Origin: a virus
Lineage: Duplodnaviria > Caudoviricetes
DNA: 35,493 nucleotides
Direction: 5' to 3' (one strand)
Virus record (IMG/VR): IMGVR_UViG_3300020045_002709
Span: 1 to 35,493 of that record
The translations under genes were made by a program, and so were the position numbers. Under the pieces are notes generated by a model, which was not told the origin of the DNA, searched no databases, and worked only from the letters and a program-made list of their open reading frames with translations. Within the stretch, counting starts at the first letter, position 1, and each line of letters opens with the position of its first letter. Below are positions 3,578-25,568 of this stretch, piece by piece.

Positions 3578-3582
3578 TTTTA

Positions 3583-3610
3583 GAGCCTCCAACAATTCGG
3601 GGGCTTTATT
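3583..3610 (+). terminator. Putative intrinsic terminator
   Basis: GAGCCTCC-aacaattc-GGGGGCTT (with G-U pairs) followed by TATT. Confidence 0.55.
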
Positions 3611-3654: not shown

Positions 3655-3662
3655 TATATTTG
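3655..3662 (+). promoter_or_regulatory. Bacteroidota -7 promoter element for the peptide/lysis unit
   Basis: TATATTTG matches TAnnTTTG; intergenic, about 40 nt before ATG 3700. Confidence 0.65.
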
Positions 3663-3699
3663 CAAAGTAGAATGAATGTTTAACTAATATTTATGCAGT

Positions 3700-3786
3700 A
3701 TGAAAAAGTACAAGATTGAACCGGATGATGGTGGAGAATTGCCCGATGATATGCCTCCAACCGTTCCAACTCCTAAAAAGCCGTGA
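3700..3786 (+). CDS. 28-aa acidic/Pro-rich peptide (not in ORF track)
   Basis: MKKYKIEPDDGGELPDDMPPTVPTPKKP*; the stop overlaps the next GTG start (GTGA). Confidence 0.6.
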   Translation: MKKYKIEPDDGGELPDDMPPTVPTPKKP

Positions 3787-4172
3787 GAAGCAAGGCTCTG
3801 ATATTGTTAGTCAAGTATTTCCCAATAGCATCGAACATTAACCTGCTATTGCTGATGTCCTGCCTGCTTATCGGAGTCGATTACCGTCCGCAAACATCAT
3901 ATTTTCTAGGTGCTTCGTTTTGGCCTTTATCCGTTTTTTGGATACTATCATATACCTTGCATTTCTGCTTATGGCATCGCATTTTGTTGGCTAGCACAAC
4001 ATTTTATGCGGTGCTTTCTTTTTTAGGAAACAACGGTGTAGAATTTAATTATTATCTTTACCTCGCTTTAACTATTAATTTAATCTGCTTGCTTACCGCA
4101 TTAATACTTTACAAACGGGATGGATGCTACATTAAAAAAGTTAGTCCGAGGGATAAGGAAGTTAGCGAATGA
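3783..4172 (+). CDS. Multi-pass (about 4 TM) membrane protein with FCxWHR motif
   Basis: Four hydrophobic segments; LSYTLHFCLWHRILL. Confidence 0.75.
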   Translation: MRSKALILLVKYFPIASNINLLLLMSCLLIGVDYRPQTSYFLGASFWPLSVFWILSYTLHFCLWHRILLASTTFYAVLSFLGNNGVEFNYYLYLALTINLICLLTALILYKRDGCYIKKVSPRDKEVSE

Positions 4173-4356
4173 AATCGAGTGCGGACTTTGCGACCGCATG
4201 GATGAACAGACATACAAACAATTTCTCGATGGTCTGTATATGATTATTGAGGCAAAAAAAAAGACTGATGGAAGACCTGATAGACCTAGCAAAATTACTT
4301 GCAACCGCCCTGCTTACTTTCGGTGGATCTGTGTTTTATTTCAAGGCAAAAAATAA
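4120..4356 (+). CDS. Small helical hypothetical protein (3' end uncertain)
   Basis: MDATLKKLVRGIRKLANEIECGLCD...; contains an A9 run at 4254-4262 and overlaps the next gene by 89 nt. Confidence 0.55.
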   Translation: MDATLKKLVRGIRKLANEIECGLCDRMDEQTYKQFLDGLYMIIEAKKKTDGRPDRPSKITCNRPAYFRWICVLFQGKK

Positions 4357-4678
4357 AAAGCTGAACGCAGAGGCCGAAAAGATTGAAGCCGAAACGGACA
4401 CCACTACCGTAGCACTACTAACGTCAGCCATTGACGGATTGGAACGCATTTACAGCCTAAAATTCAAAACGTTCGAGGAAACATACGAACTGAAATTAAA
4501 GCACCTCACAGACCAGATATCAGACCTTAACGGTAAGTTGGATAAAACAGAAAAGGTTTACAAGATCGACCGTGAGCTTTTGGCGATTTACAAAAAGGCT
4601 GCCGAAAAAATGAAGGACTGCCCGAACTTTGAGCAGTGCCCAGGTGCAAGGGAATTTCATAGACTAACGAAAATATAA
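4268..4678 (+). CDS. Holin-like / membrane-anchored coiled-coil protein
   Basis: Probable ATG at 4268; one N-terminal TM then coiled coil; directly upstream of the endolysin. Confidence 0.6.
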   Translation: MEDLIDLAKLLATALLTFGGSVFYFKAKNKKLNAEAEKIEAETDTTTVALLTSAIDGLERIYSLKFKTFEETYELKLKHLTDQISDLNGKLDKTEKVYKIDRELLAIYKKAAEKMKDCPNFEQCPGAREFHRLTKI

Positions 4679-4679
4679 G

Positions 4680-5195
4680 ATGGCAAAAATCGACAATTAC
4701 GCTTTAAAGCTTTGGGACTTGGAAGGCGGTTTCGTAAATCACAAGGATGACAAAGGCGGTGCGACAAATCGTGGAATTACGTTTACCACCTACAAGGAAT
4801 ACCGAGCCGATAAAGGACTCACAGAACCAACGCTGAACGATCTTAGAAACGTAGGATTTGCCGAATACAAGGAAATACTTCGTTGGCATTCGTGGGATAC
4901 ATGGCAGGCAGATAAAATCAATTCGCAGCAAGTGGCTGAAATACTTGTCGATTGGGTTTACAATTCAGGTTCGTGGGGTATTAAGAAACCGCAAACATTT
5001 CTAGGATTGAAACCTGATGGATTGGTAGGGCAAAAAACACTTAAGGCCGTGAACGATTACGACCCTAGATTATTGTTTACCCACATCAAGTCAATGCGGA
5101 AAGAGTTTTATCTGAACATCGTAAAATCGAACCCATCGCAAAAGGTATTCCTAAAAGGGTGGTTGAATAGGATTGATTCATTTAATTATGTTTAG
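4680..5195 (+). CDS. Endolysin, glycoside hydrolase family 108
   Basis: EGGFVNHKDDKGGATNRGIT, DWVYNSG, PDGLVGQKT, FLKGWLNR. Confidence 0.93.
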   Translation: MAKIDNYALKLWDLEGGFVNHKDDKGGATNRGITFTTYKEYRADKGLTEPTLNDLRNVGFAEYKEILRWHSWDTWQADKINSQQVAEILVDWVYNSGSWGIKKPQTFLGLKPDGLVGQKTLKAVNDYDPRLLFTHIKSMRKEFYLNIVKSNPSQKVFLKGWLNRIDSFNYV

Positions 5196-5346
5196 TCATC
5201 TACCATACCGCAAGCAGTTTTTCAAGACCATCCAAATGTCTGACGTTCGTGTGATATTGGAATTTGAAACGATTATACGGAATTATCTTAAAATGGATAT
5301 GCTCACTAAAGAATTAGAAAATGAAAAACTTTTGGAACTTCATTAA
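5188..5346 (+). CDS. 52-aa hypothetical protein (not in ORF track)
   Basis: MFSHLPYRKQFF...EKLLELH*; fills the gap between endolysin and holin. Confidence 0.35.
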   Translation: MFSHLPYRKQFFKTIQMSDVRVILEFETIIRNYLKMDMLTKELENEKLLELH

Positions 5347-5521
5347 AACCGCACTTTCTTCTAACTCCGAAGCTAGTGCAAAGCGTATCAACGGTACGAT
5401 AGGCTATTTGGCCTGTGTAGTCTGTATCTGTGGGTGGCATCCCGAACTACTTTCCCAACTGCTGTTTATTTCAGCAGGACTTTTGGCGGCTGGACTTCTT
5501 GAAAAGGCACAACAGAAATGA
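5321..5521 (+). CDS. Putative holin (2 TM)
   Basis: 66 aa, two hydrophobic helices after SAKR, lysis-cassette context. Confidence 0.6.
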   Translation: MKNFWNFIKTALSSNSEASAKRINGTIGYLACVVCICGWHPELLSQLLFISAGLLAAGLLEKAQQK

Positions 5522-6024
5522 AACGGTTAATCTATTTATTGCCGTTATTGCTTATTGGTTGTCGGCCTTTAATCAATCTGACATCACAAGAATACGTTAG
5601 GGTAGAGGTTAGGGATACCGTGATATTTACAAAGCTTGTGCCTTATTCGGTGGCAATTAAAACAAAGGATACCATATCCAAGTTAGAAACGCCTTACGCT
5701 CGATCAATTGCTATGTGGTCGAACGGGTTTCTATCCCACAACATAACCACCAAGGATACAATCATAGGAAACATGGTTTCCGTGCCAACCACGACACGAA
5801 CGGTCGTAAAACAAGTAAATGCACTATCTAAGGAACAAAAGGCTAAAATCGAAGCCTATGACGGTTTAAATGACGATATAAAGCGGCTGAATAAAGACGT
5901 AGTGAAATTGAAGGCATCGAACAAGGATAAAACCGCATTGATCTGGAAACTGATAGTAGCACTTGGATTGTGTGGCGTGTGGATTTTGCGAAAGCCGATA
6001 GGTGCATTAATCAAATTGCTGTAA
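5518..6024 (+). CDS. Putative unimolecular spanin (lipoprotein with C-terminal TM)
   Basis: Lipobox LLIG-C, beta-rich then coiled-coil middle, C-terminal TM LIWKLIVALGLCGVWIL. Confidence 0.7.
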   Translation: MKRLIYLLPLLLIGCRPLINLTSQEYVRVEVRDTVIFTKLVPYSVAIKTKDTISKLETPYARSIAMWSNGFLSHNITTKDTIIGNMVSVPTTTRTVVKQVNALSKEQKAKIEAYDGLNDDIKRLNKDVVKLKASNKDKTALIWKLIVALGLCGVWILRKPIGALIKLL

Positions 6025-6027
6025 ATG

Positions 6028-6062
6028 AAAAAGGCCTCCAAATCGGAAGCCTTCTTTTTTTT
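6028..6062. terminator. Bidirectional intrinsic terminator
   Basis: A-tract, AAGGCCTCC-aaatc-GGAAGCCTT, T-tract, between convergent genes. Confidence 0.75.
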
Positions 6063-6622: not shown

Positions 6623-7087
6623 CTACCGATTCAGAAATATTGCTAATAGTATCGTAAAATACGCAAGGCATTCAATCCACCATGTATGGTTTTTCGGTTT
6701 GTATTTTGCCATCAAGTAAATCCCAAGCATGGACGGAAGGGCAACCCACCAAAACGATGTAGTAAGAATCCAAACGAAGGCCGTTAATATTCCCCCTTCC
6801 GCACCTATTGTATGCCACTTCTTTTGGCTAGGCAGTTTGTCATCACAAAGCACGCCTACGGTAGAAAGCAAGAATCCAGCTAAGAAAAGTATTAAGTCCT
6901 TCCAAACGCTTTGTCCTAATCCTGCCAAAACCAAAGGTATTGTATAACCCCAAGTCGACAGAATGAACATCCACTTTTCGCTTTGCTTCAAATTGTGATA
7001 TGAGGCAGAAATGCTACGCTGCACACCGTACCGAAGTGCGATGTACAGGACGTAGGCGGTGAATATGCTAAATGATAGGACTAACAC
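6623..7087 (-). CDS. Multi-pass membrane protein
   Basis: 154 aa with 5-6 hydrophobic segments. Confidence 0.7.
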   Translation of the reverse strand: MLVLSFSIFTAYVLYIALRYGVQRSISASYHNLKQSEKWMFILSTWGYTIPLVLAGLGQSVWKDLILFLAGFLLSTVGVLCDDKLPSQKKWHTIGAEGGILTAFVWILTTSFWWVALPSMLGIYLMAKYKPKNHTWWIECLAYFTILLAIFLNR

Positions 7088-7316
7088 TTGGTGTCGGGTT
7101 TAGTTTTTCAATTTCCTTTGCAGAAAGCTTGAACGGTAATTTGTCAGCCTTAAACACAATGTTCGTGTCGGACTTGATAATTTGTTCGCTTGCGTCCGTT
7201 GCGTCCGTTGCTTCGACTTTCACCACCTGTGATATGTTGCACAGGCAGTCCCCGTTCGGGTATCGCTTCATAATTTCGGCCACATTGTAGCCGTTAAAAT
7301 CAATGGTCTTTTTCAT
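7068..7316 (-). CDS. Hypothetical protein
   Basis: 82 aa; starts 4 nt after the tail-fibre stop. Confidence 0.6.
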   Translation of the reverse strand: MKKTIDFNGYNVAEIMKRYPNGDCLCNISQVVKVEATDATDASEQIIKSDTNIVFKADKLPFKLSAKEIEKLNPTPSVSPII

Positions 7317-7320
7317 ATTC

Positions 7321-9159
7321 TTAAATTATTACTTCGATTTCCATTCCAACACCACCGTTTCCTGTTGCTGTAACCCTCACGTATGAATCTGTGTACGACA
7401 TTGTTTGGTCAACCGTAACGTTAAACGATTTTGTCGTAGCGTTGCAAGCCTTTCCAGTTATCAGCGTTTCAAGTTCCGTTCCATCGTAGGAAAAAAGTTT
7501 AGCTTCGATATTCGTTAGTGAAGTTGTGGACTTGATTTTGATGGTTTTAACGGGCGAATTAAACGGTATTCGTATTGACTTCGGGCTTAATGAGATGTCA
7601 GTAGCAAATAATCCGCTTTTGTATGAGTCGGTAAGAATATTGGGGGTGTTTGAGAATAGACGGAGGTAAAAACCAAATAGCGGCCTTCCCGCTAAGCTGA
7701 CAGCTCCAGTTTCAATTGAGGAATCGGATACACCGTATAACCAACCTAATGAACCCCAATAACTTCCTTTAGCTCCAATTTCAAAAAATAGACCGCTTTC
7801 AGCCCTATTCCCGCCATCCACAAAACTAACCCCCGACTCATTCGTACTAAAAGCATTATCAAACCCGCCAAACAACGCCTTCATCTTTTTACCGCTAATC
7901 GTATCCCCGCCCAAATAATCACTTAGCATTGTAATTTCCAACTCGGAAGGTACGTGGAAACCTTTCGGGGCGTAGGTGTTAATGACAGGAATAGCATAGC
8001 CGTTGTATATTTTTCCATAGATAACCCCATTTGCTACGATGTTGGCGTAATGCGACCATGCTGGGGTGCTTAGTGCTGCCCATGTTGCATCGTCTTGCAC
8101 TTCTGGAATTGCCGTACCTCCAAATACCGTTGCTTCCAAGTTGGACGTAGATACCTGCTGAGAACCGACTGCTATGGTTGGGATGGCTGGAAATTCTGCG
8201 GAAAGAAAGGCGTGGAATTGTTGGGATTCGTAGGCGGAAAGGGTGCGGGAAATTAGTTGAAAATAAGAAATTTGGCCATCAAACGCATACCCATTTAGTG
8301 ACCTTAAAGCCGTAAATACTGCTGCTGCAGAATTAGATGCCGATAACGGCAATGCTTTTCCGTCAAATATTATGGCATTGTTTCCATTTGAGTATCGAAA
8401 TTCAATACTGTGGGATTCCCCAGCAGACAATGGCGTTGGTGCAACCATATAATTTACAGAGCCGTCATCAAATGATAGCTGCCCTGTTTCTATATGCAGG
8501 AAGTTAGAGCCAAGTTGAATAAAGTTTACAACACTTAATGCGTTTGGCTTTACTTTCAACAATACAGTCCAATCGTCTGATGTTCCAAATGATATTGCAT
8601 TATAGCCAAGCTGTGCTGTTGAAATGCCTGAAACACCTTTGATTGATTTTTTTTCGTTTGGTGCGATACCACCGCCAGCGTACCATCGATTTGTGGCTTC
8701 GATAAGGTCATTGTCCGAATCCGCCATGTTGAAAATGCGGGCAATCTTCCCCGCTGATTCGACCATACCGCAAGCGGGAACGGCAAGCAATGGAACGACA
8801 CCTTCGGCAAGGAGGTTTTTGTTTAGGTCGAAAACACGTTGCATAAATGCAATATCTTGTATTGTGCCCGAATTACCTACAACATGAGCATAGTACTCCG
8901 TATCGGGGTAAGTGTCCGAAAACGTAGAGGCTGCGGCTTCTATTTCCACTATTGCATCATCGGCTATCTGTTGGATTTCTGCCACAATTTCAGGCAGTCC
9001 GACAATCTGTTCAGCGTTGAACCGAATATCATCTTTATCTGTCCATGTTGAATGTGCAGGCGTATCAGTGGTTAGCGTTCTGATAGCCTTAACCCCCGAC
9101 ATTGAAGACTGTTCGGGTAGTTGATTTTCTTTTACTGTTGGAAAGCTGTTGTCTGCCAT
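7321..9159 (-). CDS. Tail fibre / receptor-binding protein with LamG-like and FISUMP (Fib_succ_major)-like domains
   Basis: FDGQISYFQLISRTLS (LamG-like); VGSQQVSTSNL, YGKIYN, PKGFHVPS, GKKMKA, TNESG, GGNR, YW (FISUMP-like); at the end of the tail module. Confidence 0.7.
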   Translation of the reverse strand: MADNSFPTVKENQLPEQSSMSGVKAIRTLTTDTPAHSTWTDKDDIRFNAEQIVGLPEIVAEIQQIADDAIVEIEAAASTFSDTYPDTEYYAHVVGNSGTIQDIAFMQRVFDLNKNLLAEGVVPLLAVPACGMVESAGKIARIFNMADSDNDLIEATNRWYAGGGIAPNEKKSIKGVSGISTAQLGYNAISFGTSDDWTVLLKVKPNALSVVNFIQLGSNFLHIETGQLSFDDGSVNYMVAPTPLSAGESHSIEFRYSNGNNAIIFDGKALPLSASNSAAAVFTALRSLNGYAFDGQISYFQLISRTLSAYESQQFHAFLSAEFPAIPTIAVGSQQVSTSNLEATVFGGTAIPEVQDDATWAALSTPAWSHYANIVANGVIYGKIYNGYAIPVINTYAPKGFHVPSELEITMLSDYLGGDTISGKKMKALFGGFDNAFSTNESGVSFVDGGNRAESGLFFEIGAKGSYWGSLGWLYGVSDSSIETGAVSLAGRPLFGFYLRLFSNTPNILTDSYKSGLFATDISLSPKSIRIPFNSPVKTIKIKSTTSLTNIEAKLFSYDGTELETLITGKACNATTKSFNVTVDQTMSYTDSYVRVTATGNGGVGMEIEVII

Positions 9160-23555: not shown

Positions 23556-23592
23556 CAAATATATATCATTTTTATACGCTTTATATCATTTT
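23556..23592 (-). promoter_or_regulatory. Promoter for the head/tail operon with an 11-bp direct repeat
   Basis: Minus strand TATATTTG (23556-23563); TATATCATTTT at 23562 and 23582. Confidence 0.6.
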
Positions 23593-25088: not shown

Positions 25089-25568
25089 TTATAACTTATC
25101 AATCAAATCAGATACCTGTTCGGGTTTCAGGTCTTGTACAGATGCCTTAATGTTGGCCTCCATTTCCTTCTTATCCGCAATACCCAATTTCCTAGCTACT
25201 AAGCCAGCATCAAAGCCACCCGTGTACCCATGTTCAACGTTCTGCTTGAAGCATTTGTTTCGTGCCCATGCTGAAATATCAAAAAAGTCTTCGTATCCTT
25301 CTGCCTTTTCGTAGTTGTAAAACGTCTGTGTTGATATGTCTAGGTGGTCACATATGCCTTCAATCAAGTACGGTCGTTGTGTAGGTATCTGAATTATTTC
25401 CCCTGCTCTTTCTCCTGACTTTAAGGCTTCATTCTTGTAGATAGGATTCTGATCGCACCAATCGAAGTACTTCTGAATAGCTTTCTTCCATTCCCCAGGT
25501 GTTGCATAAGCCATTGGCCTGCCTTCTCCGCTATCCTTTGCAAACTGGTTGCCCTTTGGTGCTGCCAT
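25089..25568 (-). CDS. terS: Terminase small subunit (P22 gp3-like)
   Basis: MAAPKGNQF, GRP, YFDWC, RPYLIEGIC..L.IS, ARKLG; upstream of TerL. Confidence 0.85.
   Translation of the reverse strand: MAAPKGNQFAKDSGEGRPMAYATPGEWKKAIQKYFDWCDQNPIYKNEALKSGERAGEIIQIPTQRPYLIEGICDHLDISTQTFYNYEKAEGYEDFFDISAWARNKCFKQNVEHGYTGGFDAGLVARKLGIADKKEMEANIKASVQDLKPEQVSDLIDKL

Follow-up and report, generated by a model that had tools for sequence, protein, structure and literature searches.

The lysis genes of the window (the whole stretch of DNA analysed here, an entire virus record of 35,493 bases with an estimated completeness of 46%) are preceded by a module of three overlapping genes, encoding a short peptide, a small membrane protein and a helical protein (ORF3), which is conserved as a unit and widespread among Bacteroidota phages (Table 1). 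We suggest that it could be an intracellular membrane switch, where the membrane protein would bind and likely cut the peptide and tether ORF3, which would likely tune the holin-like neighbour. We consider this reading, built on sequence comparison, quite possible and hold it tentatively. What is new here is the gene module together with its membrane protein family, the mechanism being a proposal.

Distribution of the module

The module is present in the crAss-like gut phages IAS virus, cr3_1, cr106_1 and cr116_1. Other abundant gut phages also have it, as do small Bacteroidota phages from the environment. A phmmer search over representatives with the window membrane protein returned 49 matches and, after dropping 1 self match and 2 spurious repeat proteins, 46 true non-self relatives were kept. 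Word-based searches with the same protein retrieved nothing but itself. Loci were collected by scans of viral and metagenome sequences; 231 were examined and 79 near-identical gut-phage loci were excluded. The motif of the membrane protein was found in 216 of the 231, and there are 84 clusters at 70% identity, 66 of them with enough upstream DNA. From 32 loci given by a scan of genome contigs, the module was found in 2 (L340 and L351, both Bacteroidota MAG contigs), with 1 weak unconvincing match and 29 loci without any. An ESM Atlas search gave only sub-threshold leads, and no description of the module was found in the open literature (subscription journals were outside the scope). Since homologues occur in Crassvirales records and in two Bacteroidota MAG contigs, the host of the window phage probably belongs to Bacteroidota.

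Table 1. Features of the window in and around the module and the lysis genes.
Feature	Coordinates	Strand	Description
Terminator-like hairpin	3581..3608	+	Downstream end of early/middle genes; weak U-tract; z -3.7, 0/200 shuffles; absent from terminator scan
Candidate Bacteroidota -7 promoter element TATATTTG	3655..3662	+	Not conserved in homologues
28-aa peptide	3700..3786	+	Acidic, GG-containing, Pro-rich; stop overlaps membrane gene start (GTGA, 3783-3786)
Membrane protein, 129 aa	3783..4172	+	KxxP and FCxxHR (FCLWHR in the window); four helices; predicted N-in/C-in; no known family
Hairpin and U-tract inside membrane gene	3973..4023	+	-19.9 kcal/mol; 0/150 synonymous shuffles as low; lineage-specific
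ORF3, 78 aa, CGLC	4120..4356	+	Helical-hairpin N-domain (residues ~1-50); HTH of gut-phage homologues missing; tail overlaps next gene
Holin-like protein	4268..4678 (ATG 4268)	+	One N-terminal TM segment, coiled coil, Cys-containing C-terminus; putative holin, by position only
Endolysin, GH108 and PG_binding_3	4680..5195	+	GH108 E 8.8e-19
Second small membrane protein	5321..5521	+	Two TM segments; putatively holin-like; no family match
Spanin-like protein	5518..6024	+	Lipoprotein signal (LIGC) and C-terminal TM segment; putative
Hairpin and T-tract	6027..6062	+	Where the cassette converges on the structural operon; z -1.65; 13/200 shuffles as low

The membrane protein

The structure model has four long helices (pLDDT 87.5), in agreement with the roughly 4-TM protein with an FCLWHR motif described in the initial annotation. 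The GTG start at 3783 is supported, since K11 and P14 precede the database start at Met25 (P0001). Across 48 loci, P14, F61, C62, H65 and R66 are invariant and K11 and S56 nearly so; W/Y64 is variable and the Cys is lost in a few homologues. The i/i+3 spacing of C62 and H65 at the start of a helix is as compatible with a metal site or a helix cap as with a catalytic dyad.

The invariant residues lie in or beside the N-terminus and loop 2. The K+R load is 2.1-2.6 in the N-terminus, loop 2 and the C-terminus and about 0.5 in loops 1 and 3, the outer loops being short and poorly conserved. From this charge bias, the N-terminus, loop 2 and the C-terminus are placed inside the cell, and therefore the conserved P/F/C/H/R face is predicted to be cytoplasmic.

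An already characterised, unrelated family for the membrane protein would have told against the initial annotation. None was found in Pfam, PHROG or NCBIfam, and there was no PADLOC match and no PDB sequence relative. Foldseek gave no match in the PDB at E<=0.001, VIA reached a best Z of 7.9 with generic helical bundles, and the best rows of the BFVD search were uncharacterised phage proteins with E>0.04. In P0117 and P0118, two tandem fusions of the membrane protein with itself, the motif of the first copy is degenerate, and since tandem duplications carry one degenerate motif, the protein likely works as a dimer. Another locus, L199, has two membrane genes in tandem, the motif of one of them being degenerate.

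The peptide

Both the 28-aa ORF and its GTGA coupling to the membrane gene, claimed previously, were confirmed in the sequence. The suggestion that FCxxHR membrane genes of other Bacteroidota phages have a tiny upstream ORF also holds: 57 of 66 clusters have a short ORF (13-60 aa, Pro/Gly/Lys/Arg-rich) whose end lies directly upstream of the membrane gene, compared with 4 of 278 control genes of the same loci, using a filter designed after the peptides had been seen. Homologues thus mostly have the short upstream ORF and, in 49 of 66 clusters, the downstream helical or HTH gene that the initial annotation suggested looking for. Among the 9 clusters failing the filter, 5 have a short upstream ORF by eye, 2 have the motif as a membrane-protein tail and 2 have nothing. 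The stop and start of the two genes overlap in most loci, while the peptide stop of L006 is 62 nt upstream of the membrane gene; 6 of the 57 peptides are in frame with a longer upstream ORF.

Variable sites of the peptides, counted in 10 clusters, are distributed as 25/22/57 over codon positions 1/2/3. This third-position bias indicates that the peptides are coding in the relatives, where they are under purifying selection. The peptides of the window and of L129 share 19 identical residues, 6 of those via different codons.

A GG pair is present in 43 of the 57 peptides (shuffled mean 19.5, maximum 29 in 1000 shuffles) and absent from 14. Cys is found in 21 of the 57 homologue peptides; the window peptide has neither Cys nor Ser. 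No export signal was found in the 57 homologue-cluster peptides, and just 1 has a hydrophobic stretch. The peptides are highly diverse, and their class follows the membrane-protein clade. In the gut subtype, whose ORF3 bears an HTH, they share a conserved motif of their own and are mostly basic (median charge +0.29 per residue) and poor in Pro (0.08); in the HTH-less subtype they are near neutral and Pro-rich (median Pro fraction 0.22), with Pro runs just before the stop. In four loci (L088, L102, L169 and L340) a holin-like membrane protein encoded upstream ends, in frame, with the Pro/Gly peptide motif as its C-terminal tail; in L102 and L169, both apparently missing ORF3, this tail has no internal Met.

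Comparison with Agr and arbitrium

According to the available text of PMC10482373, AgrD/AgrB is also a short peptide gene beside a membrane protein with an invariant Cys and His near the membrane interface, and AgrB is a dimer with non-equivalent sites, which is echoed by the tandem membrane-membrane fusions of the phage family. On the other hand, AgrB has 6 helices and the phage protein 4 in its 129 aa. The AgrB site is His77/Cys84, whereas C62 and H65, although invariant, differ in their CxxH order and spacing, and their catalysis is putative. No AgrB match was obtained from Pfam or NCBIfam for the window protein or among 48 family members. AgrD has an amphipathic leader and a central Cys or Ser for the thiolactone/lactone, all lacking in the window peptide, and neither an AgrC kinase nor an AgrA regulator was found among the scanned neighbours (in a window record 46% complete). 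By analogy, the module may work like AgrB/AgrD, as a membrane Cys/His enzyme with a peptide, but outside Agr membership.

Arbitrium (AimP/AimR/AimX) has a secreted propeptide with a signal sequence and an adjacent RRNPP/TPR receptor. It shares with the module a phage-encoded, highly diverse small peptide next to a regulator. However, here the Sec signal peptide and the TPR/RRNPP receptor are lacking and a membrane protein is present instead, the host is Gram-negative and the link is to late and lysis genes. Beside the peptide, no arbitrium receptor was found, the neighbours being the 129-aa membrane protein and the 78-aa helical protein. In line with the earlier judgement that these sequences do not resemble Agr or arbitrium, neither an AgrB family match nor a signal peptide nor an RRNPP/TPR receptor was found.

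Communication between phages could still be imagined, as in arbitrium or Agr: the peptide would get out of the cell, either at lysis or through an unknown route, and the membrane protein would sense it from outside. The high diversity of the peptides, with classes that track the receptor clade, and a peptide-membrane-HTH layout resembling a signalling relay would fit this, although the co-variation of peptide and receptor is confounded by shared ancestry. Nevertheless, with a hydrophobic stretch in only 1 of 57 peptides, outer loops that are short, poorly conserved and low in K+R, invariant residues facing inward, and a module lacking a kinase, an RRNPP receptor and an exporter, we regard such communication as decidedly unlikely. 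We prefer an intracellular switch over a between-cell signal because of the missing export signal in the peptides and the predicted cytoplasmic position of the conserved face. From the peptide-sensing or peptide-processing switch initially proposed, processing remains plausible, given the invariant Cys/His and the GG-enriched peptides, while sensing of an exported peptide is disfavoured by the lack of a signal sequence and by the cytoplasmic face.

ORF3 and the two subtypes

ORF3 shares 53 nt with the membrane gene and 89 nt with the holin-like gene, and its conservation is confined to the first ~50 residues. The small helical protein with CGLC of the initial annotation is thus present, but the CGLC is not conserved as a CxxC: the consensus of the family reads IDxGNC, where the Gly alone reaches 90%. 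The N-terminal helical hairpin belongs to no known family. PADLOC gave no match for ORF3, and only the HTH of its homologues matches mad1.

This N-domain adjoins the membrane gene in 49 of the 66 clusters. The 17 without an adjacent match comprise 3 contig ends, 2 interrupted by IS605, 4 whose ORF3 lies at another place of the locus, several that are too divergent, and L102 and L169, apparently without it. In L093 and L158, an IS605 transposase gene sits between the membrane gene and the HTH gene. In 31 clusters ORF3 has a longer C-terminal domain with an excisionase-type HTH (HTH_17 match in 23 of the 31 at E<=0.01, the gathering score being exceeded in 7), and the best Foldseek rows for the long homologues are RdfS and Xis (E 0.007-0.04). 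This domain is of the excisionase/MerR-type winged HTH class (HTH_17, TIGR01764; RdfS, Xis), which is lacking in the window ORF3; the P. aeruginosa antiterminator AlpA is also named in this comparison group. The HTH is missing in 17 clusters, including the window. In a quick tree only, 16 of the 17 HTH-less rows group together (SH-aLRT 85); the pattern used for the subtype labels mislabelled L260 as HTH-less.

Two genomes, G008 and G009, have two copies of ORF3: an N-only one at the locus of the membrane gene and a full-length one (N+HTH) elsewhere, which in G009 is without a membrane gene and upstream of a Gly-rich gene. This arrangement suggests that the N-domain goes with the membrane protein, and the HTH with the Gly-rich operon. 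HTH-bearing loci usually end in a hairpin followed by a Gly/Asn-rich gene, with TANNTTTG within 230 nt in 20 of 31, a count with no matched control. A single-protein search, limited in sensitivity, did not find the Gly-rich gene in the window or in three complete HTH-less genomes. Downstream of the HTH gene in L196-L272 there are a hairpin, a GCATTGT-like element (by eye), TANNTTTG and the Gly/Asn-rich gene, of no Pfam family, as a candidate HTH target; DUF7841 comes next after this gene in two loci.

Natural fusions of the membrane protein with ORF3 were also found. In the cr3_1 lineage (8 loci), the junction is fused in 3 (cr3_1, L318 and L319) and split in 5 (L320-L324). The three fused junctions are in frame, each different, at an A-tract of variable length, and fusions arise through small indels in the overlapping genes. 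The singletons P0064 and P0119 are also fused, but these may be assembly errors. The fusions are consistent with ORF3 working at the cytoplasmic C-terminus of the membrane protein. Across this lineage (L003, L318-L324), slipped-strand phase variation at the variable A-tract is possible, and L320 has an early stop in the membrane gene.

Two of the three module genes are often unannotated in known phages and the third is labelled 'terminase small subunit'. In RefSeq, the membrane gene is unannotated in cr116_1 and IAS virus and the peptide in cr106_1, while the HTH gene of cr116_1, IAS virus and cr106_1 (L315, L316 and L317) is labelled 'Excisionase, terminase small subunit'. Taking these labels at face value, together with the 23 of 31 HTH_17 matches and the best Foldseek rows, ORF3 homologues would be DNA-packaging or recombination factors anchored by the membrane protein, and the HTH-less copy a decaying remnant. 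However, 17 clusters have an intact HTH-less form, and three complete HTH-less genomes contain no other clear family member, a full-length ORF3 paralogue being absent from them. Besides, the window has a separate TerS-like ORF (25089-25568, by eye) beside TerL, and the likely TerS of PMC7886860 is a different gene, next to terL. The word 'excisionase' is absent from the available main text and 7 supplements of that paper. We consider packaging or recombination very unlikely, and the 'terminase small subunit' label is likely a misannotation.

The lysis genes

The five genes from the peptide to the endolysin each overlap or abut the next. The holin-like protein has weak holin/spanin PHROG matches (E 0.009-0.07) and no significant match with the cr106_1 holin. 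The product of 5518-6024 is presumably of the unimolecular spanin type. A small unannotated ORF (5173-5346) follows the endolysin, ahead of the second holin-like gene; L086 and L091 have clear look-alikes in this position, and it is another conserved gene of the lysis cassette. A programmed frameshift at the A9 run (4254-4262) was dropped as a candidate, since in homologues ORF3 also extends far into the holin-like gene; gene starts are typically A-rich in Bacteroidota.

In the HTH-less subtype, the gene following the module encodes a TM-coil protein in 16 of 17 clusters, the remaining one ending at a contig edge. The second gene downstream has an endolysin-type Pfam match in 11 of the 14 with sequence (GH108, GH19, phage lysozyme, M15 and DUF5675, the latter being counted as an endolysin by our own assumption), and in L090 the endolysin is missing after the holin-like gene. 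The claimed lysis linkage is thus supported for this subtype. Loci with an HTH often have their lysis genes upstream or lack them, and only 9 show an endolysin-type match among the scanned neighbours; the module is directly upstream of the lysis genes in cr106_1 and directly downstream in IAS virus and cr116_1. Beside the module, endolysins and holin-like genes are freely exchanged, and this exchange speaks against a specific holin partner.

Small accessory membrane and soluble proteins are found with the holin and endolysin in the T4 T/RI lysis inhibition system, according to the available part of PMC11413866. RI of T4 is targeted to the periplasm through a signal peptide, which is absent in the phage module; there is no sequence or family match, and the homologues carry an HTH. 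The location in the lysis cassette that we looked for in an antiholin was found for the HTH-less subtype. Other small accessory proteins of holin/endolysin systems are RIII and the P2 LysA antiholin.

Along these lines, the membrane protein and ORF3 could form a lysis-accessory, antiholin-like or superinfection-exclusion complex, with the peptide as an uncleaved cytoplasmic cofactor or antidote, as in toxin-antitoxin pairs. Such a complex would suit a module that adjoins lysis genes, a conserved face predicted to be cytoplasmic, a small, charged and disordered peptide, and the Pro-rich tail of L102 and L169. Yet the membrane protein has no PADLOC match, the neighbouring holins vary, and the GG enrichment and the HTH of 31 clusters would be left unaccounted for, so we see this complex as possible but rather unlikely.

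Proposed mechanism

In the intracellular switch that we prefer, the chained overlaps would couple the translation of all five genes, from the peptide to the endolysin, within one late unit. The Cys/His site on the cytoplasmic face would likely bind and cleave the GG-containing peptide at the GG, while the helical domain of ORF3 would likely be docked on the same face by the membrane protein. Docking may be set by the peptide level or its cleavage state. The output of the gut subtype would be the release of the HTH towards the next operon; in the HTH-less subtype, ORF3 would act on the overlapping holin-like protein, and lysis timing would be tuned. The fact that the module is separable in relatives counts against this switch.

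A bolder version, which seems improbable to us, would make the four-helix protein a new minimal Cys/His membrane peptidase or transpeptidase cutting the disordered peptide after the double glycine. The GG-ended piece may then pass to a partner like a ubiquitin- or Pup-type tag, and the switch would have been kept from Crassvirales to small environmental Bacteroidota phages, its output being rewired from an HTH regulator of the Gly-rich operon to direct lysis control. If the membrane protein does process the peptide, it would represent a new membrane enzyme family. The available text of PMC6235969 reports incomplete, MOI-dependent lysis for crAss001, and a three-gene candidate switch with five invariant residues touches on the lysis timing and host persistence of Bacteroidota phages.

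Promoter and hairpin elements

The initial annotation placed a terminator and a promoter before the peptide. The upstream hairpin is more stable than all 200 shuffles, but its U-tract is weak and it is unlisted in the terminator scan. As for the promoter, TATATTTG fits the Bacteroidales -7 consensus as given in the available part of PMC8748976, although its frequency is that of chance and there is no enrichment in homologues. In the window, TANNTTTG has 42 copies against 39.5 by chance. Bacteroidota promoters are expected to have a TTTG element at -33 spacing, and none was found at that distance from the 3655-3662 element. The promoter element precedes the peptide in 11 of 57 homologues and 47 of 278 control genes, and a conserved promoter was thus rejected. 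The window phage may nonetheless use TATATTTG, since the same octamer is intergenic at 23556, 26096 and 26836.

No terminator had been noticed between the peptide and the endolysin. The holin-like gene and the endolysin are confirmed as the continuation of the unit; however, a hairpin with a U-tract lies inside the membrane gene and is possibly a polar attenuator in this lineage. It is missing at that position in 16 of 16 other HTH-less loci, and a conserved internal terminator was rejected for this reason.

The peptide could alternatively be a cis-acting leader, where ribosome stalling at its Pro- or Lys-rich end gates the coupled membrane, ORF3 and lysis genes, helped here by the internal hairpin and U-tract. 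The stop/start overlap of most loci, the Pro runs just upstream of the stop in the HTH-less subtype and the hairpin of the window agree with it. Against a leader, the gut peptides are basic and Pro-poor with a conserved motif of their own, the peptide of L006 stops 62 nt ahead of the membrane gene, the hairpin is not conserved and the GG enrichment is unaccounted for. We find a cis-acting leader unlikely, and retain the intracellular switch as our preferred reading.

The hairpins flanking the cassette share the run GCCTCCAA (3585-3600 and 6033-6050), with no longer repeat found; an invertible segment at the cassette was rejected, as no inverted repeat flanking it was convincing. Terminase, portal and capsid genes are on the minus strand of the window, recombination and replication genes on the plus strand, and the lysis cassette (3700-6024) is on this early-gene strand. 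In L086, L130, L140, L142, L147 and L188, the module is located 3' of, and in the same direction as, homologues of the window genes 7321-9159, 7068-7316 or 6623-7087. The cassette appears to be inverted in the window genome, which may explain its own promoter and internal hairpin.
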